NCBI RefSeq assembly: GCF_963921235.1
Contig: NC_086097.1
Span: forward strand, 169,634,001-169,698,000
Length of the DNA stretch: 64,000 nt
Direction: 5' to 3'
DNA from: Mobula hypostoma
Taxonomy: Eukaryota
Shown: piece by piece, positions 11,310-64,000 of the stretch
Layout of the letters: every line of letters begins with the position of its first letter
Position numbering within the stretch: the first letter of the stretch is position 1
Notes under the pieces: generated by a model
Databases searched by the model: none
The model's input: only the letters and a program-made list of their open reading frames with translations
Told to the model about the DNA's origin: nothing
Program-made: the position numbers and the translations under genes

Positions 11310-11535
11310 TTAAAGGAATGCACACGAAATGCTGGAAAAGCTCAACAGGTCAGGCAACGTCTATAGAAATGAATAAACAGTTGATGTTTTGGGCTGAGGC
11401 CCTTCTTCAAGACTGGAAAGGATGAAGGAAGACACCAGAATAAAAAACTGTGGGGGGGGGGAGAAAGGAATTCAGCTAGAATATGATAGGTGAAGACAGG
11501 TGGGTAGGAAAAAATAAAGGGCTTGAGGGGAAGGA
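11310..11535 (-). mobile_element. Old PLE 3'-tail fragment with a decayed hammerhead motif (11378-11416)
   Basis: Reverse complement reads CAGTC-TTGAAGA-A-GGGCCTCAGCCC-AAAA-CA-TC-AACTG followed by the tgcctgacctg..gag..ttccagca tail. Confidence 0.6.
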
Positions 11536-12298
11536 TTAAAGGGAATATTTGAAAAGAGATTTAAAACCAATTTAAAGAAGTGTTTTAAAATCTAATGATG
11601 TTTGACACCAGGTTTCTACTTGTTATTGTTTGACAAGTGGTCTCGCCTTGTTACTTTTTTTGTTGGAGTAACAGAAGAAGCAGGATTTGCCTGTGGAAAT
11701 ATTTTCAAATGTACTGAAAATTAAAAGAAATAGCAATGTCTGAAAGAGTTTATCATTTAAAACTAAACCTTCCAAAAAGTAACTGAAAGCATTTCTATTG
11801 AACTAATATAGTTTATTTTTCTACCATATACTCTGTTCTGTTACAGGAAGCTGAAGATGCTAGAATCTGGTGCAAATCACAAAATGCTGGAGAAACTCAC
11901 CAGGTCAGGCCATATCTATGGAGGAAAATGGACAATAATGCTTCGGGTCATGGTCCTTCATCTGTTGACTGTTCACCTGACCTGCTGAGTTCTTTCAGCA
12001 ATTTGTGTGTTATTGTTCTGTTGCAACCTTATTACTGCAGCAATTGCCAAATTTTGTAGCCAACCTGGATAGAAGCTGAAAACACCCTTTGTTTCTGTGC
12101 TGAAACTTTTAATTTTTGTTAATTGGTGCTTCAGTAAAATATTGAATTTTAAAGTATTTACTGTGATTGGAAAATGAAAACTCCAGGTTCATAGGTAAGG
12201 ATTACTATGATAATATATGATTACTATATAGGTAAGCATTGTACTTGTGTTACTTTTTAAAAATAATCTCAATTCCATTGTTTGTGTTCTTATAACAG

Positions 12299-13645: not shown

Positions 13646-16092
13646 TATGTGATATCACTTTCTCTTTCAAAGTTGTTTAGGAAGCTTTTATAATCTACTT
13701 ATTTGTTTGCTGCAACTTTCTGCTCGTTGTCTACTTTTTCCTCTTTTAATGTGTTTCCCTTGCGAAAGCTGAATTGCTCCCAATGCTCAAGTTTGTTGCT
13801 TTGTCTAGCAATTGAGTATAACTTTGGATATTATACCATTTTAAATTTTTGTTAACTATGGTTGTAATCTATCTGTACTGTCTTTTGGCCTTAACAGTCA
13901 CATACTTAGAGATACTGATTGCAAGTTTCAGCTGTAAACCCTACTGTATTCCTCAGGCACAAGTTAGTCAAATAATAAGTCCCCCTAGAGACACCTCCTT
14001 ACATAACCTCTCAAGTGAACAGAGCGTTGGTGGGGCTTGATCCTGATTGATCACCTTTTATTCTTTTGGTTTTATACCAAATCTATTACATTTCCTGCAC
14101 TCATTATTTACTGTCAGCCATTGGCTATCTAATGCCACAACTACGAATGAAGCTCTCCAGTTGCTTCAGATCCCATACAACAGAATTTTTAGTGACCATC
14201 TATTCATTGCACAATACTCGGTCTAGGATAGCCTGTTCCCTGCTCATCTGCTGAACATATTGATCCAAAAAGCTAAACAAAATTAAATCAGCGCTAATAG
14301 TGCTCAGAAATTCTTCAATGTTGTGTCAAACTCAACATTGAATTAAACAATTTCTTCTGCCTGTATGTGATCCATATTCTTCCATATTCATGGGTCCATG
14401 TAAAATCCTTTTAAACACTACAATTGTGTTTGGTTTCACTACTACCCCTGGCAGCCTACCCCTGTCTATTTGGTTATAATTTTATAGATTATTATTAATT
14501 AGATTGCTATCATTCGATATAACTGTTTTACCCTTTTTGCATGCAACTTTAATTTCTAGTGTTACCAAATGCTCTCCATTATGTCTTGGGAAGTCTGTAG
14601 GCAATTGTCAATATCTTCTGGTCCTTTTGCACCACTGAGCTCCATCCAGACTCATTACACTTCATTTTATGAACTAATGTTTCTGACTAATCCTTTAATT
14701 AGCCATCCATTTCCTCTTTTTCCATTTTGCATGTGCTTCCTAACTATTTAATGTCCTTGGATATTCAACTCCAGCTTTGATTATCCTCCAACCATGTCTC
14801 TATAATGAAAATCATATTTTGTTTGTTGCTCTCTGTTTGTTCACCTTATTTATGCTTTTTTGGGTTTTTAATGTTTTTAAACATTTAATCACTTCACAGG
14901 ATTTTTCCATTGAAATCTATCATCTTGTTGCAGATCTCAAGAAACCTACTGACAACTTTACACTCATGGGCTTTGTGGGGCATTTTTGCCCTATATCAAA
15001 TACAGGATTGCTCCTGATGAAGGGCTTTCAGCCCAAAACGTTTTTTTTTAATTCCTTTCCACGGTGCTGCTTGACCTGCTGAGTTCTTTCAGCAATACAT
15101 GTTCTCAAATAATGCAGACTATTTTAAATAAAAGTTTGTCTTGAACGTACATTGGGCAGAACCATAGGTTGGGAATCTAGGTCTGTTGAAACTTTAAATG
15201 ATAAGGTAGTAAAGCTTCTTAATCAAAATACTGGTAGAAATGTTCCTGCTTGTCCAGGTAACAGCTTTGCTTATTAAGGGATATGCTTGTAAGGCAATCT
15301 AGATTTCAGTAAGATAAATACCTGTGAAAATGTTGCCATATGATGGAGTAGGAGAAGATAAGAGAATTACTTTTTTCCTATTGTTTTGAAAATTTTAGCA
15401 ATACTGAAGCAAGTAATCAGCTGCTCAACCTGTTTTCATAAATTGTATATTGAAAATGTTTATGTGAAAGCACATAACTACAGTTGACTTCCTACAATCA
15501 CTCACTAAATGTATTTACTGCAATATGGTTCCACAGGAATCCACCTGCCTTCTATTTACCTTACTCCTTTGATCAGTTTTTATTTCTGACCCAAAATAAT
15601 ACATTTTTCAGCTATTTGTACCATACTCACAACAAAATTTCTTTCAGATGCATTAATAATTTTAAAATATATTGTATGTTGTTATTCTAGAGTTTGGCTT
15701 TGTAGAGTTTCTCCAAACTTAGAGAATTAGGGCCATCACTTAATTATTGGAAAGAGCGTGGCATAACCTTCCTGATAATTTGTCCCATGAGATAGCACTA
15801 AAACTTAAAAATGTAGGCATTGTAATTAAATTTATCTTCTGCTATCAGTGTTAGTATGCAACAAGCAGCACACAGTATTATACAGATCTCTCTCCATTTA
15901 TGATTGGATAACATTGTTAATGAATTTTCCATTTTTCTTCCCTGTGGAACTGACAAGCAAAATATTGAATACAAATTGACTTCATCTAAATTCAATATCG
16001 TTAATGTAGCTGTACCATAATAACTATTTATAGCTTTTGAAATGAGTGGTTTATTGGAAAATGGAACTGAAATGTAATCTTTTGCATTGCAG

Positions 16093-19385: not shown

Positions 19386-19849
19386 TAGACAATAGGTGCA
19401 GGAGTAGGCCATTCAGCCCTTTGAGCCAGCACCACCATTCACTGTGATCATGGCTGATCATCCACAATCAGTACCCTTTTCCTGCCTTCTCCCCGTATCC
19501 CTTCACTCCACTATCTTTAAGAGCTCTATCTAACTCTTTTTTGAAAGAATCCAGAGAATTGGCCTCTACTGCCTTCTGAGGCAGAGCATTCCACAGAACC
19601 ACAACCCTCTGTGTGAAAAAGTTTTTCCTCAACTCCGTTCTAAATGGTCTACCCCTTATTCTTAAACTGTGGCCTCTGGTTCTAGACCCCCCCAACATCG
19701 GGAACATGTTTCCTGCCTCTAGCATGTCCAATCCCTTAATAATCTTATATGTTTCAATCAGATCCCCTCTCATCCTTCTAAATTCCAGTGTATACAACCC
19801 CAGTTGCTCCAATCTTTCAACATATGACAGTCCCGCCATCCCGGGAATT
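19386..19849 (-). mobile_element. Young CR1 3' fragment inserted in the BEL integrase region
   Basis: Open frame IPGMAGLSYVERL...TRGHSLRI...FFTQRVV; tail (CTATTGT)n; flanking direct repeat AACAAACAA at 19377-19385 and 19850-19858. Confidence 0.9.
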
Positions 19850-20824
19850 AACAAACAAACAACACACTTAGACAAGATTCTTCGTATAGCTGTACTAGCA
19901 CTGGAAATACAATATTTTTGGGAAAACCTCGATAACGTGTGCTGATGGTCACCATCAGGCCACCAAAGAAACCTTAGTAGATCCACATCTTCTGCTGGTT
20001 CTTCAACCTGATGAAACATTAATTTAATATCCGCCATAATCACCACTGGTTCTTTTCTGAATCTGGTTGTGACTTCAATCATTGAACTAGTAAGATCTGC
20101 ATGTAACAGTTGAGCATTAAGTGATATTCCCTGGAAAGTCATTCCACAAACAAACACAATACTAAGTTTCTCTTTTCTGGGGTGATAAATACCATGATGT
20201 GGAATATACCAGACTTTCCCATCGTTGTGTTTCAGATCCTCTGCTGGCACTATCTTTTTGGCGTAACCTTTGGAGATGATATCCTTCATGAAAGCTGAGT
20301 AGTCAGTGTGAAATGACAAATTCTTCTTAAATCTCTTCCTTGGATTCAGAGCATACTGTTCAGCAATCTTCTCATTATTAGGCACGTTTACATTATTCTT
20401 TAAGGTAAACTAATCTCGTGGTGAATATCCATCAGCTTTGCAGAATTTGCCACCAGCTCCATGAACTTGTGATCTTCTCTTGTCAAACCAGGTTGATCAC
20501 CCTGACTGCATTTAGGGAAATCTGCCTTGAGTTGCTGCTGATCTCATCCATGTTCAAAACTGAAATCCTGTTAACTGTCAGCTCTGGCTGAGCATAGTCT
20601 CTTCAGTCACCATGGTCTCCTTTCTGTGGTCCATCACCAGTCCAACCAAACATTGATCTAATTGTGTAGTGTCCATCATAACAATGCAAGTCACTCCAAT
20701 GCTTCAGGCTCAATTTCTAATCAATCTCAGGCAAACAATTATATTTCAGGTGAGACCATTCCTGTAGATCTCTCAGAAGAGGAACTTTCCCTTTGTGGAC
20801 AGGCATACTTCCCTGCATATAGAT

Positions 20825-21309: not shown

Positions 21310-24210
21310 AGTTCACAATAGATTTCACTATCCACTTCTAATCCTGAAACAACTTGGCTATTCACAATCTTTCCTTGACCCATGGTGCACAAGAGAATAC
21401 GTGTCCTTTTTTTCCTGTGAGGTTGACCTTGTTCCCGAGGCTCACTGTGCAGAACACTACTGTACTTCCTTGATCTAGGACAGCATAAGTAGCTACTGTC
21501 TTGTTACCCTTATTTAACTTCATCAGTATTGGAATTATTGGAAGTTTACATTAATGATCGCCAGCTCCCTAAGACCATTAGATACCGGGGTGTTACTCAC
21601 TGCTGTGTCCGATTCTTTCAGAGCTTGTTTCAAATCTGCACCCTTTTTATCCGAGTGAATACAAAGTATGCTTGGATGTTTGCCACTGCATTCCTTGCAC
21701 GAAAGGCACTTCCTGCAATCCATGATTATGTCTCCCGTATACATACAAACAAAGCAGACAACATTTTCTTTTAGCAAGACAGTTGTCTCATTATGAGCAT
21801 TTTTCTCCAGCTGAGGGCATGGATCCAATAGGTTTACCCTCACAGATCAGACAAACCCTTTTGGCTGATGAGACCATTTCCCTTTCATTAGTTCCAGGCT
21901 GAGATTTTAGCTTTATTGCTCATAGTGGCCACAGTAGTGGTGAAACTGCTTCCATTAGCCTAGAAATTGTGGCTTAGTTTTGTTCACACCTTTTGCTTAC
22001 TGCCAGTGATGTAGTATCCTGCATATTTACATAGACCAGGTATGTAGAAATCCTCACTTGACTTTCAATAAACTCAACAAGGTGGGTGAAAGTAGCCTCA
22101 TGGTTGTGCTTATCTAGTAGTTTACAGGTCACCCTTCTCCATAGATCCCTAAGCATGTAAGGCAATTTCCTTACAACAATCAATAGATTGGCAGGCATGT
22201 CCAGCTCTTGCAGGTACTGAACTTCTTTCATTGCGTCACAACAATCTCTAAGAAAAAGACTGTAGTCTTGAAGAGCCCTCGTGCCTTGGAATTTGATAGA
22301 TGGTCAAGAAAGAACCTTTTGCTGGTGCAGTGTTCTGTTCAGATATCCTTCCTCCAGGTTAACAGGCTGGCAACTTCTGACAGCCTCTCTGAGGCAACCT
22401 CCGGTGTACTGTTCAAGGGAGTAGAGGCAGTCACCATAAGCGTCAGTCTTGCCTTCAACACTATTCTTGAAAGCCCTCATGAATGCATAATATTGTGATG
22501 GATTGCCATCAAAGATTTGAATCTCTTTTAGGTAGAGATGCAATGCATTGTTGTGGTACAAATAAGGTTGTTATATCATTTTGCCTCCTTATGACATCCA
22601 TCGTACAATTCAGACGACTGTCATCTGAAAAACGAGTGTTTTCCTATTTTAAGTTAATGTCCCCAAAAGCACCTTGAGCTGTTGTATCTGACATTAGTTC
22701 AGAGTGCCTCCTTAATGCCGGTTGAGAGTGAACATCCTGAACTACTTTTTGTGATCCTAACTCTTGGCTCATAAACATTTGAGGAGCAAATGTACCCATT
22801 GGTGTGTTGGGTTTTCTCTGTGCCATATCAACCTAGGAAGTCACACCATAAAACTATCCTACTGAAGCACTTTTAGCACCCACAGCACTTGAAGCCTTTA
22901 GCGCTGTAGCTTTGGCCATCTCTGCAGTAATTTCATCCTGCAACTTAAGATCCTTCTTCGTATCTGCTCCTTTTCTTTCCAAAGCTGTTCCTCCATCTGC
23001 TCTTGTTCTTCCAATGCAAGTATGTTTGTTGCTGTGCGAATAATGGAGTTAAATCTGCCTCCATTTTAATGCATGCTGTGGTGGTATCAGATGCATCGGA
23101 TTTTCTGCTAGCAACATAACTTACAGTACGCACATCTGAAGCACTGTCATCTGGGTGTACATCATCCTGTGGATCCTCAGCTTTATACATAATCAAAATG
23201 TGTTAGATTTTGAGAAGACTTTTTGCTTGTTTCAGCAACATGACCTTCAACATCGCATGTTTGTTTCAGTATTTTGCTAGGACTATTAACAAGAATCTCA
23301 ATATTTGCAGATCTTTCAACTTATCACTATGGAATAGAAATTAAAGATAACCGATAATGTTGCTTAGCAACAACTTCAAGGAGAATATGCAAGTCTTTAA
23401 TGTGAGACTCCACTTGTGAGACATTTTCTGATTCTCATATAAGACCTGTAATTTTATGATATTAAACCTTTAATTTTCCTCATAATTTTCTTAAATTCCT
23501 TTTGAGAACTATTGATTCTGTTCGCTAAAAATTTCCCAGTAAGTTTAACTCTTTTAGCCCCGACTTCAAGGTCACTGACTTCAGCTCCACTCATGTTGCT
23601 TTTTCAGCTGCGCATACCAGACCAAACAAAATGCTTTCATTTCAAATGCTGAACCAGAATACTTCAGCATTTCAATAGAACCATTCTTCTGCTCCATTCC
23701 TGTAGCTACATAGTCACCTAATCTGTGTCTATTCTTATGTTTACTAGTTTGTGGCACTGGAAACAATTACCTTTCAGGTCCTGCTCTTTAAACGGCTATT
23801 TAGTTCTTTATGCTCATGTTACAGCGCCTTATCCTTTCTACTAAGTGATTGATACCGCTGGCTATTCACCCTGTTTTTCAGATTGTCCTGCAGCAAGTCC
23901 ACAATATCCTTAACCCTAGCACCATGGAGACAAATACAAGTGTACTTTTTAGCAAGGGGAATAACTACAGAGTCTCCAGCACTGTCTCTGACTGGTATTC
24001 CTGATGGTCACTCATGTCCTCTCTTTCTGTACCTCCCGGGTCAGCCATAGCACAACTGATTAGTGTCCTACCAGACCTGAACCTGTTTTAGAGTGTCAAA
24101 GTAACATCATGGCCTAATAGCCTAATACTTACTATTTCACAGCATTGGAACCTTAGTTGGGTAGTAATGATGTTTTGTTCAGCAGCTAGAGACTTTGATA
24201 TTGGCACATA

Positions 24211-25828
24211 CAGTGGCATGCAAAAGTTTGGGCACCTCTGGTCAAAATTTCTAGTTACTGTGAATAGCTAAGTGAGTAAAAGATGACCTGATTTTCAAAA
24301 GGCATAAAGTTAAAGATGACACATTTCTTTAATATTTTGAGCAAGATTACTTTTTTATTTCTGTCTTTTACAGTTTCAAAATAACAAAAAAGGAAAAGGG
24401 CCTGAAGCAAAAGTTTGGGCACCCTCCATGGTCAGTACTTAGTAACACCCCCTTTGGCAAGTATCACAGCTTGTAAACGCTTTCTGTAGCCAGCTAAGAG
24501 TCTTTCAATTCTTGTTTGAGGAATTTTTGCCTATTCTTCCTTGCAAAAGGCTTCTAGTTCTGTGAGATTCTTGGGCCGTCTTGCATGCACTGCTCTTTTG
24601 AGGTTTATCCGCAGATTTTCGATGATGGTTAGGTCAGGGGACTGTGAGGGCCATGGAAAAACCTTCAGCTTGCGCCTCTTGACATAGTCCAGTGTGGATT
24701 TTGAGGTGTGTTTAGGATCATTATCCTGTTGTAGAAGCCATCCTCTTTTTATCTTCAGCTTTTTTACAGACTTGTTTGCTTCCAAAATTTGCTGGTATCT
24801 AATTTAATTCATTCTTCCCTCTACCAGTGAAATGTTCCCCGTGCCACTGGCTGCAACACAAGCCCAAAGCATGATCAATCCACCCCCATGCTTAAGAGTT
24901 GGAGAGGGGTTCTTTTCATGAAATTCTGCACCCTTCTTTCCTCCAAACATACCTTTGCTCATTGCAGCCAAAAAGTTCTGTTTTAACTTCATCATTCCAC
25001 AGGACTTGTTTCCAAAATGTATCAGGCTTGTTTAGATATTCCTTTGCAAACTTCTGACGCTGAATTTTGTGGTGAGGATGCAGGAAAGGTTTTCTTCTGA
25101 TGACTCTTCCATGAAGGTCATATTTGTGCAGGTGTTGCTGCACAGTAGAACAGTGCACCACCACTCCAGAGTCTGCTAAATCTTCCTGAAGGTCTTTTGC
25201 AGTCAAATGGGGTTTTGATTTGCCTTTTTCAGCAATCCTATGAGCAGTTCTCTTGGAAAGTTTTCTTGGTCTTCCAGACCTCAACTTGACTTCCACTGTT
25301 CCTGTTAACTGCCATTTCTTAATTATATTACAAACTGAGGAAAAAACTACCTGAAAACACTTTGCCATCTTCTTATAGCCTTCTCCTGTGGGCATCATTT
25401 ATTTTAATTTTCAGAGTGCTAGGCAGCTACTTAGAGGAGCCCATGGCTGCTGATGGTTGGGTCAAGATTTGAGGAGTCAGGGTATTCATAAGACTTTGAA
25501 ATTTGCATCACCTGGTCTTTCCTTACGATGATTGTGAACAAGCCATAGCCCTAACAAGCTAATTAAGGTCTGAGACCTTGGTAAAAGTTATCTGAGAGCT
25601 CAAATCTCTTGGGGTGCCCAAACTTTTGCATGGTGCTCCTTTCCTTTTTTTTCCTACTCTAAAATTATACAAAACAAAAATAATACACTAATCTTGCTTA
25701 AAATGTTGAGAAGAATGTTTCATCTTTTAAGTTTATGACTTTTGGAGATCAGTTCATCTTCCACTCACTTAACTATTCACAGTAATAGAAATTTTGACCA
25801 GGGATGCCCAAACTTTTGCATGCCACTG
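24211..25828 (-). mobile_element. Full-length Tc1-family DNA transposon of IR/DR type, 1618 bp
   Basis: TIR CAGTGGCATGCAAAAGTTTGGGCA at both ends; TA on both flanks; inner repeats of the binding site at ~24407-24424 and ~25611-25633. Confidence 0.95.
24432..25444 (-). pseudogene. Tc1 DD34E-type transposase, with frameshifts and stops
   Basis: GRPRK, WNDE, KHGGG..MLW, QQDNDPKHT, WPSQSPDL..IENL and the AKGGVTKY* terminus are split over several frames. Confidence 0.92.
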
Positions 25829-26419
25829 TAGCCAAAAAGCATCCATTTCCAATTCTGATTGTACTTTTCCAGAAAACGTTCAGTTTCTCTGGTTTTAATT
25901 TTGATCCTCCTGGAGCCTTGAATCTGAAAAGACACTGTTCCATTCAGATTTCTGCAAGTTGGTGATCTAGTTGAAACCACACCCATTTTTGTTTGTTGCA
26001 AGCAACTGGTCTGTTTTCAAGTAAAGTCCTGAAAATGAGTAAGTTATAGGAATTTCACTGATAATTGGCGAGAGAACTCCAATCATCTGATATCCTACTC
26101 TTTGGCAATCCCTGATAGATTGACATTTGACTCATTGGGTCTTGTTTCCCCATGCTTCCTTTAAACTCACTGGTTCCCTGGTCTCTGAGCGCATTTAATC
26201 TCAGAGATTCCTTGAAAGTTATTGTCCGGTATATTTTTACTTAAAGTATATTATAAGTGTGTTCGGGTATTCATAGGGGAATAACGTGCAGTAGTTCTAC
26301 ATGACCATAGTGCTGAGCAAAGAGTGTTTTACTGTGCCAAGAACTATATATTTTTTAAAGTAGCAAAAGGAGATTTAATGAGTGAGTTGTCAATTGTTGG
26401 TCAAGTTGTGTTTGGTTTT

Positions 26420-27265
26420 GGTTTATCACGGTCAATCTGCCAAGACTGAACAGCTTGCACTGTTTATACAGATCAACTCATTACACAGTGCACGGAACTA
26501 GAATAAGGTAAAATAATAACAATGCTGAATAAAGTGTCAAAGCTACTGATAAAGTGCAAGATCATACGAGGTAGATTGTGAAACCAAGAGTCCATCTTTA
26601 TTATACAGGGGATCATTTTATCATCTTATAACAGCTGGTTAACAGCTGTCCTTGGGTCTCGTCATATGTGCTCTCAGCTTTTGTATCTTCTACCCAAAAA
26701 AAAAGGGCATCTGGTCTGGGTGGTGTCTTTGATTATGATGGATGCTTTACTGGGAAAGCGAGAAGCATAGACAGATCTATAGAGAGGAGTCTGGTTCCTG
26801 TTATGGGCTGTGATGTGTCCACAACCTTGCAGTTACTTGTGGTCACATGCAGAGTAGTTGCCAAACGAAGCAGTGATGCATCCAGATAGGATACTTTCGA
26901 TGGTGCATCGTTAAAAATTGCTCAGGAACTTGAAGCTTCTCAATCCTCTACTTCAGCACCATTGATGTAGACAGAAGCATGTGAACCATCTCCCTTTCTG
27001 AACTCAATGACTAGCTCTTTTGTTCATGCTGAAAGAAAAGTTGCAGTCTTGACATCATACAGCTAAGTTCACTTTTTTTTACTGTACACTGACTCATTGT
27101 TATTTGAGATGTGACCCACAGCAGTGGTATCAGCAAACTTATAAATGGAATTAGAGCAGAATCTAGCCAAGCAGTCATGAGTGTGTGGGGGCTGAGGATG
27201 CTTAGAATAATCAAAGCAGGGGTGTTGCTGACTATCCTTACTGATTGCAGTCTGTTGGTCAGAAA
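26420..27265 (-). mobile_element. Old Rex1/Babar-type LINE fragment
   Basis: Minus-strand remnants of YKFADTT and FKFL motifs; heavily decayed, boundaries approximate. Confidence 0.55.
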
Positions 27266-27563
27266 GTCTGAATCTTTAAGCTAGAAACTTAGAGATTGGG
27301 TAATGGGTTTCAAATTAGAAATGCTGGCTGGTGGTGTAGTGGCATTCACATCGGACTATGAGGTGAGTGGTCCTGGATTTGAATCCAGCTGGCTCCTTGC
27401 ACATTTTCTATCTGTACTGGGCTGAGTGTCGAGCTAGCAACTTGGTGACAAATGCTAAAGAAATGGAAACAACAGGAATTCTGCAGATGCTGGAAATTCA
27501 AGCAACATACATCAAAGTTGCTGGTGAACGCAGCAGGCCAAGCAGCATCTATAGGAAGAGGCG

Positions 27564-27601
27564 CAGTCGACGTTTCAGGCCGAGACCCTTCGTCAGGACT
27601 A
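27564..27601 (-). ncRNA. Minimal hammerhead ribozyme motif, intact core
   Basis: Reverse complement: TAGTC-CTGACGA-A-GGGTCTCGGCCT-GAAA-CG-TC-GACTG. Confidence 0.8.
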
Positions 27602-28568
27602 ACTGAAGGAAGAGTGAGTAAGGGATTTGAAAGCTGGAGGGGGAGGGGGAGATGCAAAATGATAGGAGAAGACAGGAGGGGGAGGGATAGAGCCGAGAGC
27701 TGGACAGGTGATAGGCAAAAGGGGATACGAGAGGATCATGGGACAGGAGGCCTAGGGAGAAAGACGGGGGGGGGGAGTGACCCAGAGGATGGGCAAGAGG
27801 TATATTCAGAGGGACAGAGGGAGAAAAAGGAGAGTGAGAGAAAGAATGTGTGCATAAAAATGAGTAACAGCTGGGGTACGAGGGGGAGGTGGGGCCTAGC
27901 GGAAGTTAGAGAAGTCAATGTTCGTGCCATCAGGTTGGAGGCTACCCAGACGGAATATAAGGTGTTGTTCCTCCAACCTGAGTGTGGCTTCATCTTTACA
28001 GTAGAGGAGGCCGTGGATAGACATGTCAGAATGGGAATGGGATGTGGAATTAAAATGTGTGGCCACTGGGAGATCACTTAGAGAAAGCAGGATCTCCCAG
28101 TGGCCACACATTTTAATTCTACATCCCATTCCCATTCTGACATGTCTATCCACGGCCTCCTCTACTGTAAAGATGAAGCCACACTCAGGTTGGAGGAACA
28201 ACACCTTATATTCCGTCTGGGTAGCCTCCAACCTGATGGCACGAACATTGACTTCTCTAACTTCCGCTAGGCCCCACCTCCCCCTCGTACCCCAGCTGTT
28301 ACTCATTTTTATGCACACATTCTTTCTCTCACTCTCCTTTTTCTCCCTCTGTCCCTCTGAATATACCTCTTGCCCATCCTCTGGGTCACTCCCCCCCCCC
28401 CCCCGTCTTTCTCCCTAGGCCTCCTGTCCCATGATCCTCTCGTATCCCCTTTTGCCTATCACCTGTCCAGCTCTCGGCTCTATCCCTCCCCCTCCTGTCT
28501 TCTCCTATCATTTTGCATCTCCCCCTCCCCCTCCAGCTTTCAAATCCCTTACTCACTCTTCCTTCAGT

Positions 28569-28606
28569 TAGTCCTGACGAAGGGTCTCGGCCTGAAACGT
28601 CGACTG
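28569..28606 (+). ncRNA. Minimal hammerhead ribozyme motif, intact core, GUC cleavage triplet
   Basis: TAGTC-CTGACGA-A-GGGTCTCGGCCT-GAAA-CG-TC-GACTG; helix I TAGTC/GACTG; helix II GGGT/GCCT; helix III reduced to palindromic ACGT. Confidence 0.8.
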
Positions 28607-28747
28607 CGCCTCTTCCTATAGATGCTGCTTGGCCTGCTGCGTTCACCAGCAACTTTGATGTATGTTGCTAAAGAAATGGCAAGGTTGCCACCTGATGCAC
28701 CAGAAGGTGCATTTGTAGCATTTTGCTTCCAAGTCAATATTATAATA

Positions 28748-31297: not shown

Positions 31298-32905
31298 AGA
31301 CCACAAGACGTAGGAGCTGAATTAGTGTATTCAGCCCATTAAGTCTGTTCTGCCATTTGATCATGGCTGATCCATTTTCCCCTCAACCCTAATCTTCTGC
31401 CTTCTCCCCGTATCCTTTAATGCCTGACCAATCAAGAGCATCAACTTCTGCAATAAATACACCCAATGACCTGTCCTCCACAGCCACCTCTGGCAATGAA
31501 TACCACAGAATCACTACCCCTGGCTAAAGAAATTCCTCCTAATCTCTGTTCTAAATGAATGTTCCCCTATTTTGTGATTGTACCTCTGATCCTAGGCTCC
31601 CCTCTATTGGAAATAATCCTCTACATATCCACTCTATATAGGCCTTTCAACATTCAATAGGTTTAAATGAGATTTCCGCCTCTCCCCGCCCCATCATTAT
31701 TCTTAATTCCATTGAGTACTGGTCCTGAGTCATCAAAATTTCCTCATATGATAAGCCTTTCATTCTTGGAATTATTTTCATGAACCTCCTTTGAACCCTC
31801 TCCAACGTCAGCATATCCTTTCTTAGTTAAGGGGCCCAGAACTGCTCACAGTACTCACTAGTGCTTTGTAAAGCCTCAGTGTTACATCCTTGCTTTTATA
31901 TTTTAGTTCTCTTGAAGTGAATGCTAACATTGCAGTTCTGTACCTCACCACTAACTTAACCTGCAGGTTAACCTTTAGGGAATCCTGCAAAAGGACTCCC
32001 AAGTCCCTTTGCTCCACAGATTTTGAATTTTCTCCCCGTTTAGAAAATAGTCTATGCTTTTATTCTTTCTACAAAAGTACATGACCTTGCATTTCCTGAC
32101 ATTGAGTTCCATCTGCCACTTCTTTGCCCATTCTCCTAATCAGTCGAAGATCTCCTGCAGCCTCCCTCCTTCCTCAACACTACCTGCCCCTCCACCTATC
32201 TTTCTATCATTCACAAACTTGGCCACAGAGCCATCAATGCCATCATCCAGATCATTGACATACAATACAAGAAGAAGTGGTCTCAACCGAGATGGCTGCA
32301 GAACACTACTGGTCACTGGCAGCCAATCAAAACGACTCCCTCTTTCCCACTCTGCCTCCTGCAAATCAGCCAGTGCTCTATCCATGCTGGTATCTTTCTT
32401 GTAATACCATGGGCTCTTATGCTAAGCAGCCTCATCTGCAGCACCTTGTCAAAGGCCTTCTGAAAATCTAAGTACACAAAATCCACCAATTCTCCTTTGT
32501 CCATCCTGCTTATTATTTCCTTAAACAATTCCAACAGATTTGTCAGACAAGATTTTCACTTAAGGAAGCCATGCCAACTTCAGCCTGTTTTACCATGTGC
32601 CTCCAAGTACCCTGAAACTCTGTCTTGCACAGTGAAGACTGACGCAAAATACTTATTATACCATTTCTTTATCGTCCTTTTCTACCTCTCCAGCATCATT
32701 TTCCAGTGGTCCAATTTCTACTCGTAGCTCTCTTTTACTCTTTGTTTACCGGAAAAAAACTTTTTGTATCCTCTTTTGATATTATTAGTTAGCGTACCTT
32801 CATATCTCATCTTTTCACTTCTGTTTTTTTAGTTGATGTCTAGGTTTTTAAAAGCTTCCCACCATTTTTTTTGCTCTATTATATGCCCTCCTTTTTGCTT
32901 TTATA
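31298..32905 (-). mobile_element. CR1 LINE, decayed, with internal deletions
   Basis: VYLDFQKAFDKV, VAKFVND, DLGVLLQDSLKV, LYKALV on the minus strand; 3' UTR at ~31300. Confidence 0.85.
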
Positions 32906-33457
32906 TTGGCTGCAGAATCAAAAAGGGTAACAGATACATTACTCAAAGTGTTATGTCTCAATTCACGTAGTATAAGAAATAAGTGGATAATTGTGTTGCA
33001 CTATTACAGATTGTCAGGTATGATGTTGTGGCCATCACTGAATCGTGGTTGAAGGATGGTTGTAGTTGGGAGCTGAATGTCCAAGTTTACACGTTGTATT
33101 GGAGGGACAGGAAAGTAGGCAGAGGGAGTGGCATGGCTCTGCTGTTAAAGAACAGCATCAAATCGGCGGAAAGGTGTGACATAGGATCAGAAGATGATGA
33201 ATCCTTGTTAGGAATTGAAAGGGTAAAAGGACCCTGATGTGGACCACAGATTACAACAGGAAATAGAAGAGGTGTGTCAAAAGGGGCAATGCTATGAAAG
33301 TCGTGGGAGATTTTAACATGGAAGTCAATTGAGAAAATCTGGTTGGAAATGGATCTCAAGAGAGTGAGTTTGTTGAATGCCTACGAGATGGTTTTTTTAG
33401 AACAGTTTATCGTTGAGCCTACCAGGGGATCAGCTATACTGGGTTGGGTGTTATGTA

Positions 33458-33999
33458 CAGACATCCCACCTCTCCCGGAAGGCCCGGGAGTCTCCCGCAA
33501 ATTAATAGTGGCTCCCTGATGCCCGCAAATTATATGCAATGTCCCAGAAATTGATTTTTTTTGAGAGCACATGAGAGAGCGAGTGCAAGAGCGAGAAAGC
33601 GAGCGTGAGTGAGAGCGAGCGAGAGCACGCGCGATAGAGCAAGAGCGAGAGAGTTCCAAAAAAAGTCAGAGTGGCAATGTTCCAAAAAAAGAAAATATAA
33701 AACGTACGTCACCCCAGACGTGTACCCCTGCCTAATAGGGGTCAAAATAATGACAGTGTTGCTGGCTGCACTGTTTGCAACAGTGACTTTTCTATTGCCC
33801 ATGGTGGGTTAAAATGTAAAAGACATGTTGAGGTGAGTTTAACAGGTGTCATTCATTCATTAGCATAGCTAACGTTATTTAAATAGCTGGCTGGCGGCTA
33901 AGGAGCTACTCTATTGCAAACATCCAGAACTCCCGGAAGTCTCCCGCAAATTGATGGTGCTACCTCCTTGAAATGAGTTTTTGCAGGGTGGGATGTCTG
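33458..33999 (+). mobile_element. Internally deleted hAT-like DNA transposon with a 7-bp TSD, inside the CR1 endonuclease region
   Basis: TIR CAGACATCCCACC/GGTGGGATGTCTG; TSD TTATGTA at 33451-33457 and 34000-34006; subterminal repeat AGTCTCCCGCAAATT; zinc-finger remnant CTVCNSDFSIAHGG..CKRH. Confidence 0.82.
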
Positions 34000-35004
34000 T
34001 TATGTAATGAACCGCAGATGATTAGGGAGCTAAAGGTAAAGGAACCCTTAGAGGGCAGTGATCAAACAAAATAATACTGAGTTCAACTTGAAATTTGATA
34101 AGGAGAAAGTAAAGTCTGTTGTAGCAGTATTTCAGTGGAGTAAAGGAAATTACAGTCGTATGAGAGGAGTTGGCCAAATTAAATTGGAAGGAGATGCCGG
34201 CAGGGAGGACAGCAAAGCAACAATGATGTGAATCTCTGTGAAAAATAAGGAAGGTGCAAGATAGATGTATCCCAAAAACAAAGAAATAGTCAAATGGAAC
34301 GACAGTACAACTGTGGCTGACAAGGGAAGTCAAAGCTAATGTAAAAGCAAAAGAGAAGGGCATAAAACAAAAACAAAATTAGCAGGAAGATAGAGGATTG
34401 TGAAGCTTTTAAAAACATACAGAGAGCAACTAAAAGAATCATTAGGAGGGAAAAGATGAAATATAAAAGCAAGCTCGCAAACAATGTTAAAGTGGATAGC
34501 AGAAGCTTTCAAGTATGTTTAAAAAAAAGAGATGAGAGTGGATTATAGGCCCTCTAGAAAATGAGGCCAGAGAAGTAGTAATGGGGGACCAGGAGATGGC
34601 TAATGAACTAATTGAGTATTTTACATCAGTCTTCACTGTGGAAGACACTAGCAGTGTGCCAGATGTTGAAGGGTGTGAGGGAAGAGAAGTGACTATTACA
34701 AGGGACGAAGTGCTCGAAAAGCTGAAAGACCTAAGGATATATAAGTCACCTAGACCAGATGAACTGCACCCTAGGGCTCTGAAAAAGGTAGTATTAGAGA
34801 TTGCATTAGTAATGATCTTTCAAAACTCATTGAACTCTGGCATGGTGCCAGAGGACTAGAAAATCGAAAATGTCAATCCACTCTAAGAAAGGAGGAAGGC
34901 AGCAGAAAGGAAATTATAGACCAGTTAGCCTGAACTCAGTGGTTGGGAAGATGTTGGAGTCAATTGTTAAGGATGAGGTTATGGAGTACTTGGTGACACA
35001 GGAT

Positions 35005-35254
35005 ACAACACTTGGCGGCACGGGAGGTCGTTCCTGCCTGTGGCCATCGAACGTGCAGCTCCTCCTGTGGAGGGTCGGACACCCTGAGCAGATGGACTGG
35101 TCCTGGACTTATTTTCCATCTGGCATAGTTTTGCATTTTGTTGTTTGACTGTTGGGGTTTTTTGTATTGCTATACTTACACTCTATTCTTGGTTGGTGCG
35201 GCTGTAACGAAACCAAATTTCCCTCGGGATTAATAAAGTATATCTATCTATCTA
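35005..35254 (+). mobile_element. Short Rex1/Babar 3' end inserted in CR1
   Basis: Similar to the 3' end of the 16939-17654 family (ttcctgcctgtgg..., ggagggtc.gacaccctg); AATAAAG followed by a (TATC)n tail. Confidence 0.72.
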
Positions 35255-36539
35255 GGACAAGGTCAGCATGGTTTCCTTAAGGGAAAATCTTGCCTGACAA
35301 GCCTGTTGGAATTCTTTGAGGAGATTACAAGTAGGAGGGATAAAGGGGATGCAGTGGATGTTGTTTATTTGGACTTTCAGAAGGCCTTTGATGAGGTGCT
35401 GCACATGAGGCTGCTTACCAAGTTAAGAACCCATGGTGTTACAGGAAAGTTACTGGCATGGTTAACACATTGGCTAATTGGTAGGAGGCAGCAAGTGGGA
35501 ATAGGAAGGATCCTTTTCTGGTTGGCTGTCAGTGACTGGTGGTGTTCCGCAGGGTTCGGTGTTGGGACTGCGTTTTATGCTGTATATCAGTGACTTTGAT
35601 AACGAAATACATGCCTTTGTTGCCAAGTTTCCCGATGATACGAAGATTGGTGAAGGGGCAGGTAGTGTTGTGGAAACAGGGAGGCGGCAGCAGGAGTTAG
35701 ACAGATGAGAATGGGCAAGAGTGCAAATGAAATACAATATTGGAAAATGTGTGGTCATGCACTTTGATTGTAGAAATAAATGTGCAGACTATTTTCTAAG
35801 TGGGGAGAAAATCTGTAAGTCAGAGGTGCAAAGGAACTTGGGGGTCCTTGTGCAGAACATCCTAAAAGTTAACTTGGTGGTAGAGTCAGTGGTGTGGAAG
35901 GCAAATGTAATGTTCGCATTCATTTCAAGTGGTTTAGAGTACAAGAGCAGAGATGTGTTGCTGAGGCTTTATAAGACACTGTTGAGGCCTCACCTTGAGC
36001 ATTGTGCACAGTTTTGGGCTCCTCATCTAAAAAAGATTTTCTGGCATTGGAGAAGGTTCAGAGGAGTTTCACAAGGATGATTCTGGGAAAGAAAGGGTTA
36101 TACGAGGAACATTTGATAGCTCTGGGTTTATACTTGCTGGAACTTAGGAGGATGAGGGGAGATCTCATTGAAACTTTTCAAATGTTGAAAGGCCTAGATA
36201 GAGTAGATGTGGAAAGGATGTTTCCCATGTTGGGGGAGACTAGAACAAGAGGACACTGCCTCAGGATAGAGCGGTGTCCATTTAAAACAGAAATATAGAG
36301 AAATTTCTTTAAGCAGAGGGTGGTGAATTTCTGGAATTTGTTGCCACAGGCAGCTGTGGAGGCCGGGGTATTGGATATATTTAAAGTAAAGATTGATAGG
36401 TTCTTGATTGGACATAACATCAAAGGTTACAGGGAGAAGACCAGGGGAATGGGGCTGATGAGGGTAAAAAGAATGAGCCACAACTGAATAAAGGAGCAGA
36501 CTTGATTGGCCAAATGCTCCCATGTCTTATGGTCTTTTT

Positions 36540-37160
36540 TGAAGTAGTGTTCTTGGGTTCATGTCCATTCAGAAATCTGATGGCAGAGGGGAGGAAGCTA
36601 TTCCTGAAACGTGTGTGTCTTCAGATTCCTGTCACCTTGTTCCTGGGTGATGGGGTTACTTAATGATGGATGCAGCCTTTTGAAGGTTACAACTTCCTGC
36701 ACCTTCTTCCAATCCTGTACAGTGGCCCCTCTGTACCAAATCGTGATTCAAGTTCTCCATGATACATCTGTAGAAATTTGCACGAGATTTTGACACCCAG
36801 GAACTTGAAGCTGCTCACCCTTTCCATTGCTGATCCCTCGATGAGTACTGGTGTGTGTTCCCTTGACTTCCCCCTTCCTGAGGTCCACAATCAATTCCTT
36901 GCTCCTACTGATGTTGAATGCAAGGTTGTTGTTTTGACAACAGTCAACCAGCTGATCTGTCTCACTCCTGTACACCTCTTCATAACCATCTGAAACTCTG
37001 ACAATAGTACTTCAGCTAATTCATAATGGCATTTGAACTGTGCTTAGCCACACAGAAATGGGGTTACAGGGAGTGGAACAGAGGGCTAAGCACACATCCT
37101 TGAGGTGTGCCAGTGTTGATTGTCAGTGAGGAGGAGATGTTATTTCTAATTTGCTCTGGC
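36540..37160 (-). mobile_element. Rex1/Babar-type LINE fragment
   Basis: KELIVDLRK and [14 protein letters not shown] on the minus strand. Confidence 0.78.
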
Positions 37161-37249
37161 AGGGTTTGCAGGCTTTTACTTCTTACAAGGTAAATTCTTA
37201 ACATCAAAAGGTGGTCTGTGGTGCTTCACTCTCAGATAGCTCAACGTCT

Positions 37250-38050
37250 TTTATCAGAATTCCAGATGGTGAGGAGGAGGTGTACAGAAGTGAGATCAAT
37301 CATCTGGTTGAGTGCTGTCACAACAGTAACCTTCCACTCATCGTAAGGTCAAGGAATTGATTGTAGATTCAGAAAGGGGAAGTCAAAGGAACACACACCA
37401 GTCCTCATTGAGGGATCAGCAGTAGGAAGAGTGAACAATTTTAAGTTCCTGGGTGTCAGGATCTTTGAAGATCTATCTTGGCCCAACATATTGGTGCAAT
37501 TACAAAGAAAGTATGACAGTGGCTATATTTCATTCAGAGTCTGAGGATATTTAGTATGTCACCAAAGACTTTCGCCAATTTCTACAGATATACTGTGGAG
37601 AACATTGTAGCTGGTTGCATCGCCGCCTGGTATGGAGGGGCCATTGTTCAGGATTGAGAAAGTTGCAAACTCAGCTGAGTTCCGTCATGGGCACTAGCCT
37701 CACTAGTACCAAGGATATCTTCAAAAGGAGATGCATTCAAAAGGTGGCATGCCTCATCAAGAATCCCTATCACCCAGGACGTGCCCTCTTCTCATTGCTA
37801 CCATCAGGGAGAAGGTATAGGAGCCTGAAGACACACACTCAACATTTAAGAAACAGCTCTTCCCCAACCCCCACCATCAAATTTCTGAATGGACAATGAA
37901 CCCGTGTATACTACCTACTTTCTGTGCTTTTTTGCACTAATTTAAATTATGTATAAAAATGTATGCATTTCTTAATGTAATTCAGTTTTGTTTTGCAATG
38001 TATTCCACTGTACTGTTGCCAGTAATATTAAACCTCATTCTAATTCTGAA
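37250..38050 (+). mobile_element. Rex1/Babar-type LINE 3' fragment
   Basis: HPGRALFSLLPSGRRYRSLK; tail ATTAAACCTCATTCTAATTCTGA. Confidence 0.8.
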
Positions 38051-49724: not shown

Positions 49725-51250
49725 ACGGATATCATAAACTTCACGCTTCAGCAGTCTTAAGTAACTATATGGTTCAAGTAGGCTTCAATTATACCAATGA
49801 CCAAGAAGAATGTGGTAACCTGCCACAATGATTATTGTCCAGTAGAAGTTACATCCCCTGTGATGATGTGCTTTGAGAGGCTGGTGACAAAACATGTCAT
49901 CTGCCTGAGAAGTGACTTGAATCTACTGCAGTCTGCCTACTGTCACAGCAGATGCCACTTCACTGGCTCTTCACTCAGCGCTGGAACATCTGGACAGTGA
50001 AGATGCAAACATCAGGATGCCCTTCATTGACTACAGTTCAGCATTCAATACTATTGTCCTCTAAAAACTAGTCTATAAGCTTCAAGACCTTGGCCTCAAT
50101 ACCCCCTTGTGCAACTGCATCCTTGATTTCCTCACTTGTAGACCCCAGTCAGTTCAGTTTGGCAACATCTCCTCCATAATCTCCATCAGCAGGTCTTGCG
50201 CCACAAAGCAGTGTGCTTGGCCCCCGCTTTACTCGCTTTATACTTATGACTGTGAGGCTAAGCACAGCTCCAATAACATGTTTAGGTTTGCTGATGACAC
50301 CACTGTTGTTAGCCAAATCAAAGGTGGTGATGAAGCAGCATATAGTGGGTAGAATGAAAATCTGGCTGAGCGGCGCCACAACAACCACCTCTCACTCAAT
50401 GTCAGCAAGGCCCAGGAACTAATTATTGGCTTCAGAAGGAGGAAACCGGAAGTCCAGAAGCCATCCTTATCACGGTCTCAGAAGTGGAGAGGGTCAGCAG
50501 TTCTAAATTTCTTGGTGTCATCGTTTCAGAGGATCTGCCTTGGGTTCAGCTTGTAAGTGCCATAATGAAGGAAGCACAGCAGAACCTCTACTTTCTAGAA
50601 GTTTGCGAAGTTTCAGCATGTTATCTAAAACTTTGACAAATTTCTATAGATGTGTGGTGGAGAGTATATTGACTGGTTACATCATGGCCTGGTATAGAAA
50701 TACCAGTGCCCTTGAGCAGAAGAGTCTACAAGAAGTAGTGGATACGGCCCAGTCCATCACAGGTAAAGCTCTCCCCACCATCGAGCACATCTACATGGAG
50801 CGCTGTCACAGGAAAGCAGCATCCATCATTAATAACTACCACCATGCTCTCTTCTCACTGCTGCCATCAGGCGGAAAGTACAGGAGCCTCAGGACCTACA
50901 TCACCAGGTTCAGGAACAGTTATTACCTCTCAACCAGTGGGGATAACTTCACTCAACTGTACTCACCCCATCACTGAACTTCTCCCACAACCTATGGATG
51001 CACTTTCAAGGACTCTTCATCTCATGTTCTCCATATTTATTGCTTGTTTATTTTTGTTTTCTTTTGCCCTTTGTATTTGCACAGTGTATTTTTTTTTACA
51101 AATTGGTTGTTTGTTCTTTTGGGTACAATCTTCCATTGATTCTATTGTGTTTCTTGCATTTACTATGATTGCCCACAAGAAAATGAATCTCAGTTGTACA
51201 TGGTGACATATATGTACTTTGGTAATAAATTTACTTTTAACTTTGAATTT
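49725..51250 (+). mobile_element. Rex1/Babar-type LINE, 5'-truncated, decayed
   Basis: [25 protein letters not shown]; same family as 4385-5845; tail AATAAATTTACTTTTAACTTTGAA. Confidence 0.85.
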
Positions 51251-51336
51251 CAAGATGGAGAGGCAATGCTGGAGATTTTGCAGATACATATAAAATATTG
51301 GAGGAACTCAGTAGGTCAGGGAAAATAAAAAGTCAG

Positions 51337-52950
51337 GCAACACACATCAAAGTTGCTGGTGAACGCGGCAGGCCAGGCAGCGTCTCTAGGAAGAGGTACA
51401 GTCGACGTTTTGGGCCGAGACTCTTCGTCAGGACTAACTGAAGGAAGAGTTAGTAAGAGATTTGAAAGTGGGAGGGGGAGCGGGAGATCCAAAAAGATAG
51501 GAGAAGACAGGACGGGGAGGGATGGAGCCAAGAGCTGGACAGGTGATTGGCAAAAGGGATATGAGAGGATCATGGGACAGGAGGTCCGGGGAGAAAGACC
51601 GGTGGTGGGGGGAACCAGAGGATGGGCAAGGGGTATAGTCAGAGGGACAGAGGGAGAAAAAGGAGAGAGAGAGAAAGAATGTGTGTATAAAAATAAATAA
51701 CGGATGGGGTACGAGGGGGAGGTGGGGCATTAGCAGCAGTTAGAGAAGTCAATGTTCACGCCATCAGGTTGGAGGCTACCCAGACGGAATATAAGGTGTT
51801 GTTCCTCCAACCTGAGTGTGGCTTCATCTTTACAGTAGAGGAGGCCATGGATAGACATGTCAGAATGGGAATGGGATGTGGAATTAAAATGTGTGGCCAC
51901 TGGGAGATCCTGCTTTCTCTGGCGGACAGAGCGTAGGTGTTCAGCAAAGCGGTCTCCCAGTCTGCGTTGGGTCTCGCCAATATATAGAAGGCCACATCGG
52001 GAGCACCGGACGCAGTATATCACCCCAGCCGACTCACAGGTGAAGTGTCGCCTCACCCGGAAGGACTGTCTGGGGCCCTGAATGGTGGTAAGGGAGGAAG
52101 TGTAAGGGCATGTGTAGCACTTGTTCTGCTTACAAGGATAAGTGCCAGAAGGGAGACCAGCGGGGAGGGATGGGAGGGACAAATGGACAAGGGAGTCGCG
52201 TGGGGAGCAATCCCTGTGGAAGGCAGGGGGGGGGAGGGAAAGATGTGCTTAGTGGTGGGATCCCATTGGAGGTGGCGGAAGTTACTGAGAATAATATGTT
52301 GGACCTGGAGGCTGGTGGGGTGGTAGGTGAGGACCAGGGGAACCCTATTCCTAGTGGGGTGGCGGGAGGATGGAGTCAGAGCAGATGTGCGTGAAATGGG
52401 GGAGATGCGTTTGCGAGCAGAGTTGATGGTAGAGGAAGGAAAACCCCTTTCTTTAAAAAAGGAGGACATCTCCCTCATCCTGGAATGAAAAGCCTCATCC
52501 TGAGAGCAGATGCGGCGGAGACGGAGGAATTACGAGAAGGGGATGGCATTTTTGCAAGAGACAGGGTGAGAAGAGGAATAGTCCAGATAGCTGTGAGAGT
52601 CAGTAGGCTTATAGTAGACATCAGTGGATAAGCTGTCTCCAGAGACAGAAACAGAAAGATCTAGAAAGGGGAGGGAGGTGTCGGAAATGGACCAGGTAAA
52701 CTTGAGGGCAGGGTGAAAGTCGGAGGCAAAGTTAATAAAGTCAACGAGCTCAGCATGTGTGCAGGAAGCAGCGCCAATGCAGTCGTCGATGTGACGAAGG
52801 AAAAGTGGGGGACAGATACCAGAATAGGCACGGAACATAGATTGTTCCACAAACCCAACAAAAAGACAGGCATAGCTAGGACCCATACGGGTGCCCATAG
52901 CTACACCTTTAGTTTGGAGGAAGTGGGAGGAGTCAAAGGAGAAATTATTA
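51337..52950 (-). mobile_element. Neptune-like PLE, 5'-truncated: RT C-half, linker, GIY-YIG endonuclease, 3' tail
   Basis: MGTRMGPSYACLF, FLRHIDD (YIDD mutated), TDVYYKPTD, CxxxxCxxC linker, VIY...YIGET, RFAEH, PVATHF, RLEEQ; frameshifted near the poly-C run at ~52230. Confidence 0.93.
51399..51436 (-). ncRNA. Minimal hammerhead motif, probably inactive (GAAA changed to AAAA)
   Basis: Reverse complement: TAGTC-CTGACGA-A-GAGTCTCGGCCC-AAAA-CG-TC-GACTG. Confidence 0.6.
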
Positions 52951-54109
52951 AGAGTTATATTTATGTGAACAATTAAATTCTTTAATCAAGGAAATGCAGC
53001 CAATGAGCCTAGGACATGGATTGTGAAAGCAACTGCCTCCCAACTCCGCCCATAACCCCTCCCCAATCTGACCACCTGTCCGACATTCTTCATCCTTCCT
53101 CAGTACACCAATCACCTGCCAGCCTCTGTCTCACCCTTATCCCTCTCTTCACACCGGCTACCTTTCACTCTCCGCTTTAGACCCTGACCCAGAACGTCAA
53201 CAATTTCATCACACACACACACCCCCACCCACCCACCACACACACACACTGTCCAATCCGTTGAGTTCCTCCAGCACATTATTTATTACTCCTTGGTTAC
53301 AGGGATTTCTAATTAGATAGGGATAAAAAGAAGCAACATGTGAAATATTGTTCAAAGAAATGATTGAAACTGTGAGGAGTGATGGAAAAGTCAACAACTG
53401 AGTTAACCTGAGGCACTTTCAGAGGCTGGTCTCAATACTGGTCCCAAGTTACCAGAGGGAGACAGAACTACAAATAATTCAGGTAATCCAGTAAAAAATG
53501 GTCATTAAAATAGGGGATTTCTATTTTAAAAATGGTAGTTGCAAGTGATATCTTGTTAAAAGTATAAATGATGCAGATTTTTTGGAATGTATACAAGAAA
53601 AAAAAGTTAACCAGTATTTATCAATTTCAACAAGATAGGCAACACTTCGCAACTTTCTCTGATTGAAATAGTGGAAGCAGTCATTGTCATGGCTATCCCT
53701 TGAGGTCGAGGATGATGGTCTTCATTCTGAAGAAGTGGCCTACAGAGCGAAGATGCCCGTGCATGTATTTGTTTAACGTGTACTTGATGTTGCGCTCCAA
53801 GAAGCACACGATACTTCACAAATCAACCAACTGATTCCAATGGCATGGAAACCACGATGATTGGAGCTGATGGATTTGTTGCAGCTTCATCCGACTTCAC
53901 AGCCGTTGAGTTCAAAGTAACTTCGTCCACCTGTTCCACCGTTGAGGTCTTGTTTGGATTGCTCTTTGTCAGGGACCTCACCCTCGACCTTACCGCCATG
54001 GGTGACTTCTCTTGGGATCACAGGACCACACAAGCTTCTCTACCACAACAAGGTGACAATCCACGGAGAAGCAGTAACAGCAAGAACACAATAGTAGTAA
54101 TGATTATAA

Positions 54110-55338: not shown

Positions 55339-56032
55339 ATAGAAAACACAGAAAATAGGTGCAGGAGTAGGCCATTCTGCCCTTTGAGCCTGCACCACCA
55401 TTTATTATGATCATGGCTGATCATCCAACTCAGAACCCTGCACCTGCCTTCCCTCCATACCCCCTGATCCCCATAGCCACAAGGGCCATATCTAACTCCC
55501 TCTTAAATATAGCCAATGAACTGGCCTCAACTGTTTCCTGTGGCAGAGAATTCCACAGATTCACCACTCTCTGTGTGAAGAAGTTTTTCCTAATCTCAGT
55601 CCTAAAAGGCTTCCCCCTTATCCTCAAACTATGACCCCTCGTTCTGGACTTCCCCAACATCGGGAACAATCTTCCTGCATCTAGCCTGTCCAATCCCTTT
55701 AGGATTTTATACGTTTCAATCAGATCCCCCCTCAATCTTCTAAATTCCAACGAGTACAAGCCCAGTTCATCCAGTCTTTCTTCATATGAAAGTCCTGCCA
55801 TCCCAGGAATCAATCTGGTGAACCTTCTTTGTACTCCCTCTATGGCAAGGATGTCTTTCCTCAGATTAGGGGACCAAAACTGCACACAATACTCCAGGTG
55901 TGGTCTCACCAAGGCCTTGTACAACTGCAGTAGTACCTCCCTGCTCCTGTACTCGAATCCTCTCGCTATAAATGCCAGCATACCATTCGCCTTTTTCACC
56001 ACCTGCTGTACCTGCATGCCCACTTTCAATGA
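55339..56032 (-). mobile_element. Young CR1 3' fragment nested in an older CR1 3' end (55110-55338 and 56033-56190)
   Basis: ORF 55430-56029 differs at only a few residues from ORF 60912-61511; the older CR1 sequence resumes on both sides. Confidence 0.9.
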
Positions 56033-63800: not shown

Positions 63801-64000
63801 CCTGCCACTTTTACTTTTCTCCTTTGTACTTTTTGCTTCTACCCTCACTTTACACCCCTCTGTCTCTCTGCACTGGTTCCCATCCCCCTGTTGTGAACTA
63901 ACCTCCTCACGCCTAGCCTCTTTAATTTGATTCCCACCCCCCAACCATTCTAGTTTAAAGTCACCTCAGTAGCCCCCACTAATCTCCCTGCCAGGATATT
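60815..64000 (-). mobile_element. Young, nearly intact CR1 LINE: ORF1 C-terminus, ORF2 and 3' UTR; continues beyond the window
   Basis: ORF1 end NILAGRLVGATEVTLN* (64000-63950); ORF2 with APE endonuclease and RT; tail (TTTCTATG)n at 60815-60836. Confidence 0.97.
60912..63965 (-). pseudogene. CR1 ORF2 (endonuclease-reverse transcriptase), one continuous frame with a single premature TGA at 61539-61541
   Basis: ORFs 61539-63944 and 60912-61511 are in the same frame, joined by GEVQ*DLGVIIHRSLKV; motifs NARS, ITETW, GDFN, SDH, YRPVSL, DFQKAFD, GVPQGS, FADD are all intact. Confidence 0.93.

Follow-up and report, generated by a model that had tools for sequence, protein, structure and literature searches.

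A young, near-symmetrical head-to-head insertion of a Penelope-like element in Mobula hypostoma, and the routes by which it may have formed

How can a single retroelement insertion come to consist of two almost identical copies that face away from each other within one target site duplication (TSD)? The question is raised by a palindromic insert of ~1.2 kb in the 64-kb stretch of DNA analysed here (the window). The insert is a real, young, single-event insertion of a Penelope-like element (PLE), and it is of a type that has already been published; what is distinctive is its near symmetry in combination with reciprocal overhangs on its two arms, which constrain the route of its formation without settling it. 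Because the route to the tandem and inverted structures of PLEs is described as undefined (PMC8557442), young and clean insertions of this kind are useful data points.

Anatomy of the insert and its target site

The left arm (27501–28075, 575 nt, with the sense of the element on the minus strand) comprises the end of a GIY-YIG coding region and the 3′ UTR/pseudo-LTR, and the right arm (28091–28669, 579 nt, element sense on the plus strand) faces it across 15 nt. The arms differ in a homopolymer, which is G10 on the left (27766–27775) and C14 on the right (28391–28404), and in a single substitution, where 28046 is G (C in the sense of the element) and 28120 is T. The coordinates reproduce the arm lengths, the gap and both differences described in the original prediction. 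Among the 25 longest of the 96 inverted repeats spaced by at most 3.5 kb in the window, no other is as long and as exact. Being a palindrome of 575 bp closed by a loop of 15 nt, the insert should be unstable, or should yield a hairpin RNA if it is transcribed. Rfam matches to hairpin-type miRNAs below the gathering scores, and one cis-regulatory match, all derived from the palindrome centre and were rejected.

The unit is bracketed by a single 14-nt direct repeat (27453–27466 on the left and 28666–28679 on the right, both read on the plus strand), which has no further occurrence on either strand of the window and cannot be extended. The last 4 nt of the right arm are also the first 4 nt of the right TSD copy (TGCT), so that both the single TSD and its overlap with the arm end are confirmed. 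Only the left arm carries a 3′ tail (27467–27500, minus strand), which reaches the distal 3′ end of the element and measures 34 nt, or up to 38 nt if the 4-nt overlap is allowed for; as had been noted, this is additional sequence of the element, aligning with the tail of a further family copy at 1–1143. An intact SINE had been named as the target, and this was not confirmed: the flank has no second good copy in the window, no tRNA-like match and no Rfam match. Candidate motifs of the box A and box B kind lie upstream of the TSD at 27330–27395, and they suggest a tRNA-derived SINE as the insertion target.

The 15-nt loop was correctly predicted in length but is a spacer only in small part. Four of its nucleotides (28076–28079) are foreign to the element, the family consensus continuing differently at this point, and the other 11 (28080–28090, plus strand) are element sequence that matches 51920–51910 and the family consensus and prolongs the right arm toward the 5′ end of the element. 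The overhangs are consequently reciprocal, with 34 nt on the left arm that are absent from the right and 11 nt on the right arm that are absent from the left. The 5′ ends of the two arms are only 11 nt apart, which suggests a shared template or RNA, or a fold-back step; under independent truncation, such proximity has a probability of ~0.01–0.04 in simple exponential models with assumed means of 300–1500 nt.

Identity and age of the element

On the strength of its sequence motifs, the element is an endonuclease-bearing (EN+) PLE of the Neptune/Nematis type. The arms contain no reverse transcriptase (RT), and the identification is based on a longer, broken family copy (51329–52985, minus strand) that includes a putative RT fragment, a linker zinc finger and the GIY-YIG region. 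The copy at 1–1143 (plus strand) is cut by the window edge, and the arms match the last 0.6 kb of these two copies at 90–92%. Within the longer copy, 51733–52248 matches PF01541 with 23.7 bits (cut-off 22.6), and the translation of this endonuclease region has two cysteines, as CxxC, between the GIY-like and YIG motifs; each arm encodes the last 57–60 residues of the endonuclease, with 98% identity. Upstream of the GIY-YIG region, the translation of 51730–52248 contains C-x4-C-x2-C, which corresponds to the CX2-5CxxC zinc-finger-like linker between RT and EN that defines Neptune/Nematis in PMC8557442; the type is assigned on this definition, and the presence of the linker rules out the Penelope/Poseidon clade. 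A 151-aa fragment upstream of EN gave no Pfam match at E 0.1 and no useful PDB match, and its Atlas feature matches (0.95–0.97), to eukaryotic clusters with RVT_1 (11–27% of members) or HTH_animal, are a lead only. The Penelope-like identity proposed at the outset is thus supported by the GIY-YIG endonuclease, the linker, the hammerhead motif (see below) and the one-sided tail. A MITE or a DNA transposon with terminal inverted repeats was rejected, the ends of the insert being offset by 34 nt and its arms being the 3′ ends of a retroelement.

A motif scan places a putative minimal hammerhead motif in each arm, at 27564–27601 on the left (minus strand; predicted cut at ~27569, 102 nt from the arm's 3′ end) and at 28569–28606 on the right (plus strand; predicted cut after 28601, 64–68 nt from the 3′ end). 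The predicted core, with short stems, is found in both arms and in both other family copies; the cut positions are predicted from its numbering. No Rfam hammerhead match was obtained in the arms, and the monomer does not fold into a hammerhead; the motifs agree with the minimal hammerhead type of PMC4209133. Because the arms run on past the predicted cuts by the distances given, the ribozyme does not define them, and the hammerhead cut was rejected as their boundary; the centre of the palindrome, for its part, lies ~510 nt upstream. The four 3′ ends that the family has in the window are all confined to two positions: the left arm ends at the distal site, as does the copy at 1–1143 with its tail (3 nt further), and the right arm ends at the proximal site, as does the copy at 51329–52985 (within ~4 nt).

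The arms agree with each other, and differ from both other window copies, in 28 alignment columns, from which a single source template had been deduced. This deduction is not supported, since the shared letters are common in the family in this organism and the likeness of the arms therefore does not prove one template. The read evidence comes from 13 listed runs, in which the words of the left flank were recovered at 0.89–0.96 in four runs of organism A (one sample, possibly the source of the assembly) and at 0.40–0.49 in four runs of a related organism, B. Contigs were compared in two runs per organism, over the left flank, the left arm and the loop, the family being represented by ~90,000–175,000 contigs per run. 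Nineteen of the 28 columns have rows in the family-wide difference table (among 40 of its 41 rows, with some differences uncounted), and at every one of these 19 a share of at least 0.14 of the depth in organism A does not carry the other letter; this share is an upper bound on the arm letter, taken over contigs with a likeness of 90% or more, and summed depth does not equal copy number. No row among the 40 of 41 looks private to the locus, and the lowest share (0.085–0.10, at 27776) falls at the edge of the homopolymer. At six of 28 arm sites listed in this table, the share not carrying the other letter is 14–46% in organism A as against 0.2–6% in organism B, and at the remaining 22 both letters occur in both organisms. 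A lineage-specific burst, in which the arms belong to a young subfamily that expanded in the lineage of organism A, fits this pattern.

Contigs at the left border bear on the age of the insertion. Both organism A runs have a contig that covers 27360–27486 with no difference, at a depth of 12.3–12.4 (flanks, 11.6–14.7), of which only 20 nt lie inside the insert, less than the 31-letter standard for bridging. For organism B, run X5 has a 236-nt contig (contig 20) that fits 27240–27466 and then continues with nine letters that do not fit, and no contig was found at the place of the left TSD among those listed for run X7. A fit that ends at the last base of the TSD is what an empty site would look like, and it was seen in one of the two organism B runs among the contigs listed. 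Over ~1100 positions, 16 differences from the window are present in the flank contigs listed for run X5, and the insertion appears to be younger than this organism A/B split of ~1.5%. The single TSD and the empty-site-like contig both support the single insertion event that had been proposed. Judged jointly with the reading developed below, in which both cut ends were primed, it is probable that the locus records a recent single insertion from a young subfamily of a Neptune/Nematis-type PLE.

Routes to the head-to-head structure

An inverted, 5′-truncated copy together with a one-sided tail of 30–40 bp is the norm described for PLEs (PMC3846280, PMC8557442, PMC2377424), and a general scheme of insertions with inverted pseudo-LTRs is given in Figure 2 of PMC8557442. 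In the Pen2a_Av/Pen2 derivatives of Adineta vaga, TSDs measure 8–10 bp, one of the inverted repeats bears a tail of 31 bp and the junctions are palindromic, which is read as self-priming (PMC3846280), and Penelope of D. virilis is described with the same arrangement and a 34–37 bp repeat (PMC2377424). The present insert shares with EN+ PLE head-to-head units the inverted 5′-truncated copy next to the 5′ end, the one TSD around the unit, the tail of 30–40 bp on one arm, the palindrome at the junction and the hammerhead motif in the pseudo-LTR. It differs from them in that both copies are equally short (~0.6 kb), so that the whole insert is palindromic with no ORF between the repeats, and its TSD is 14 nt long as against 8–10 nt in the rotifer examples (PMC3846280). 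The original prediction saw in the locus a clean record of the PLE integration mechanism, which overstates the case: the layout is the published norm, and one locus cannot separate the routes. A literature search, with most subscription journals outside its range, brought up no publication on PLE insertions of palindromic form in cartilaginous fish.

The probable course of events, in our judgement, is that a single staggered cut was primed at each of its ends, with the two known start sites in use, and that the resulting halves became linked head to head. The GIY-YIG endonuclease would have cut the two strands 14 nt apart, as the TSD indicates. The plus-strand 3′ end would then have primed at the distal start site, giving the left arm with its tail, and the minus-strand 3′ end at the proximal start site, 34–38 nt further in, giving the right arm; the 4-nt overlap at the right arm may have aided this priming or may be due to chance. 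Finally, the head-to-head union of the two halves would have gained 4 nt, and fill-in would have completed the insert. All of these reaction steps we infer, and two forms of the last stage fit about equally: either two cDNAs, probably made from one broken RNA or from an RNA pair in a dimer, were joined end to end, or fold-back of the right-arm cDNA over the 15-nt loop yielded a copy that paired with a short, tail-bearing plus-strand cDNA. The constraint that the locus adds is that the assembled structure requires RNA to have been copied from either side of the cut, because each arm has sequence that the other lacks (34 nt on the left, 11 nt on the right).

Priming on both strands of one cut had been offered as one of two explanations, and it is supported by its agreement with a PLE of the anole in vitro (PMC11167929). 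As described for that element, both strands are cut and extended, two start sites bound the tail, a dimer is predicted, ribozyme cleavage is not needed, and the study reports finding no homology at the priming sites. The likeness of the present locus to this system (PAc, the Poseidon element of Anolis carolinensis, in TPRT in vitro) extends to the two 3′ end positions with a tail between them, the extension of both strands and ends that lie well past the hammerhead cut. Against the analogy, PAc belongs to the Poseidon clade whereas the present element has the Neptune/Nematis linker, and head-to-head products are not covered in the main text on PAc (PMC11167929). Twin priming in L1 is similar in that both ends of one cut are primed and an inversion arises within a single TSD, but the two L1 cDNAs copy adjacent, nearly non-overlapping stretches of RNA, with deletions or duplications of 1–10 bp (PMC11702581), whereas here 575 nt are present twice; an L1-type twin-priming inversion was rejected for this reason.

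A more specific version of double priming is put forward only tentatively, and we would sooner doubt it than adopt it. According to this version, a PLE of the Neptune type copies one and the same stretch of a single RNA from both cut ends, using the proximal start on one strand and the distal start on the other; either the second enzyme displaces the first cDNA or the first cDNA folds back, and a short patch templated by the flank closes the centre. If this were so, the young lineage-specific subfamily would constitute a large natural set for testing the two-start-site model in vivo. A candidate template, a weak one, for the four inserted nucleotides lies 158 nt upstream of the TSD, where 27287–27295 (plus strand) matches 28076–28084 over 9 nt. 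In a post hoc test, 9-nt matches arose by chance within ±200 nt in 32 of 1601 control regions and 52 of 3000 shuffles, and within ±300 nt in 48 of 1595 and 87 of 3000, respectively. The 9-mer recurs at two other places in the window, and the letter of organism B differs at 27292. A templated patch at 28076–28079 is thus possible, and untemplated addition is equally likely.

Fold-back synthesis, the second of the two explanations originally offered, does not fit the assembled structure in its plain form, because a single folding cDNA copies only sequence already in hand and each arm holds sequence that the other lacks. To save it, either the loop must have been flipped or the tail must stem from a second priming; with the loop flipped relative to the flanks, one priming suffices. 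A single plus-strand priming at the tail would then have run as far as the 11-nt extension and folded back, copying itself up to TGCT, with the far end joined through the 4-nt microhomology or resolved by the endonuclease, and the loop would have been flipped later by recombination between the arms or misoriented in the assembly. This sequence of events would account for the nearly equal 5′ ends, the identity of the arms and the 4-nt overlap; head-to-head junctions have moreover been interpreted in print as self-priming (PMC3846280), and resolution by the endonuclease has been invoked for the tail (PMC8557442). We nevertheless consider it unlikely. It requires the additional flip, the assembled left arm being without the 11 nt, and no microhomology is present at the point of resumption beyond the added bases. 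In addition, the right arm stops where another family copy stops, a copy for which no inverted partner was found, and two start sites explain this coincidence directly.

It is less likely still that an already palindromic locus served as the source and was copied in its entirety, so that the centre junction would have been inherited. Such a source would account for the identical arms, and tandem and inverted structures of PLEs are reported to be frequent and capable of activity (PMC2377424). The junction is, however, not the main form in the family: among the contigs listed, the consensus of the loose ends past 28075 is the normal continuation of the element in all four runs (84–153 contigs each), although a minority form may exist beyond those listed.

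Two further explanations we regard as very improbable. The first is that one site received two independent insertions from this young subfamily, or that gene conversion made older arms alike; the subfamily letters common to the arms could make two events look nearly identical, and PLEs can target their own sequence (PMC11167929), but there is a single TSD, the centre contains no second TSD or remnant of a target, and the 5′ ends lie within 11 nt of each other. The second, an assembly artefact from a fold-back read or a collapsed repeat, gains from the trouble that inverted PLE structures cause assemblies (PMC8557442) and from the fact that no contig spans the palindrome centre among those listed, in a comparison that covered the left flank, left arm and loop, but the flanks differ and yet share the TSD, whereas with a fold-back read the left flank would appear a second time, and the left border is matched by contigs of both organism A runs, with 20 nt in the insert and perhaps from the assembly's own sample.

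Other repeats in the window

Further remains of PLEs are present in the window. An older, miniature head-to-head pair from another PLE-like family occupies 11834–12025, with an antisense arm (~11855–11962) that has a tail-like extension, a sense arm (~11957–12009) that has none, and a bracketing 12-nt repeat with one mismatch (11834–11845 and 12014–12025). A pairing of 11321–11354 with 11976–12009 as one unit was rejected, the nearer arm at ~11855–11962 with its TSD-like repeat giving the better fit. Decayed 3′ ends of the older PLE family are found at 11320–11560 and at 15014–15096, the latter with a hammerhead-like core. Two older PLE-like 3′ ends (51250–51335 and 53000–53300) flank the long PLE copy and point outward. 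The place where this copy inserted may have been an older head-to-head pair; by eye, no TSD could be seen around it, and BLAST between its two sides gave no match.

Among the other repeats, an 808-aa open frame on the minus strand (61539–63965), which we take to be CR1-like, contains endonuclease and RT domains and goes on past a frame break in 60912–61538. Its 3′ part is 97% identical to 55339–56033 and thus indicates a recently active LINE. The open frame at 19468–20409 (minus strand) gave no Pfam match; presumably its first part resembles a Bel/Pao-type fragment and its last part is a LINE tail. Older, loose inverted arrangements of LINE fragments (70–85%) at 36641–37779, 58574–60094 and 31364–36480 could be independent insertions in opposite orientations. 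The remnant of a Tc1-type transposon at 24209–25830 retains inverted ends of ~220 nt (82%) and a transposase fragment.
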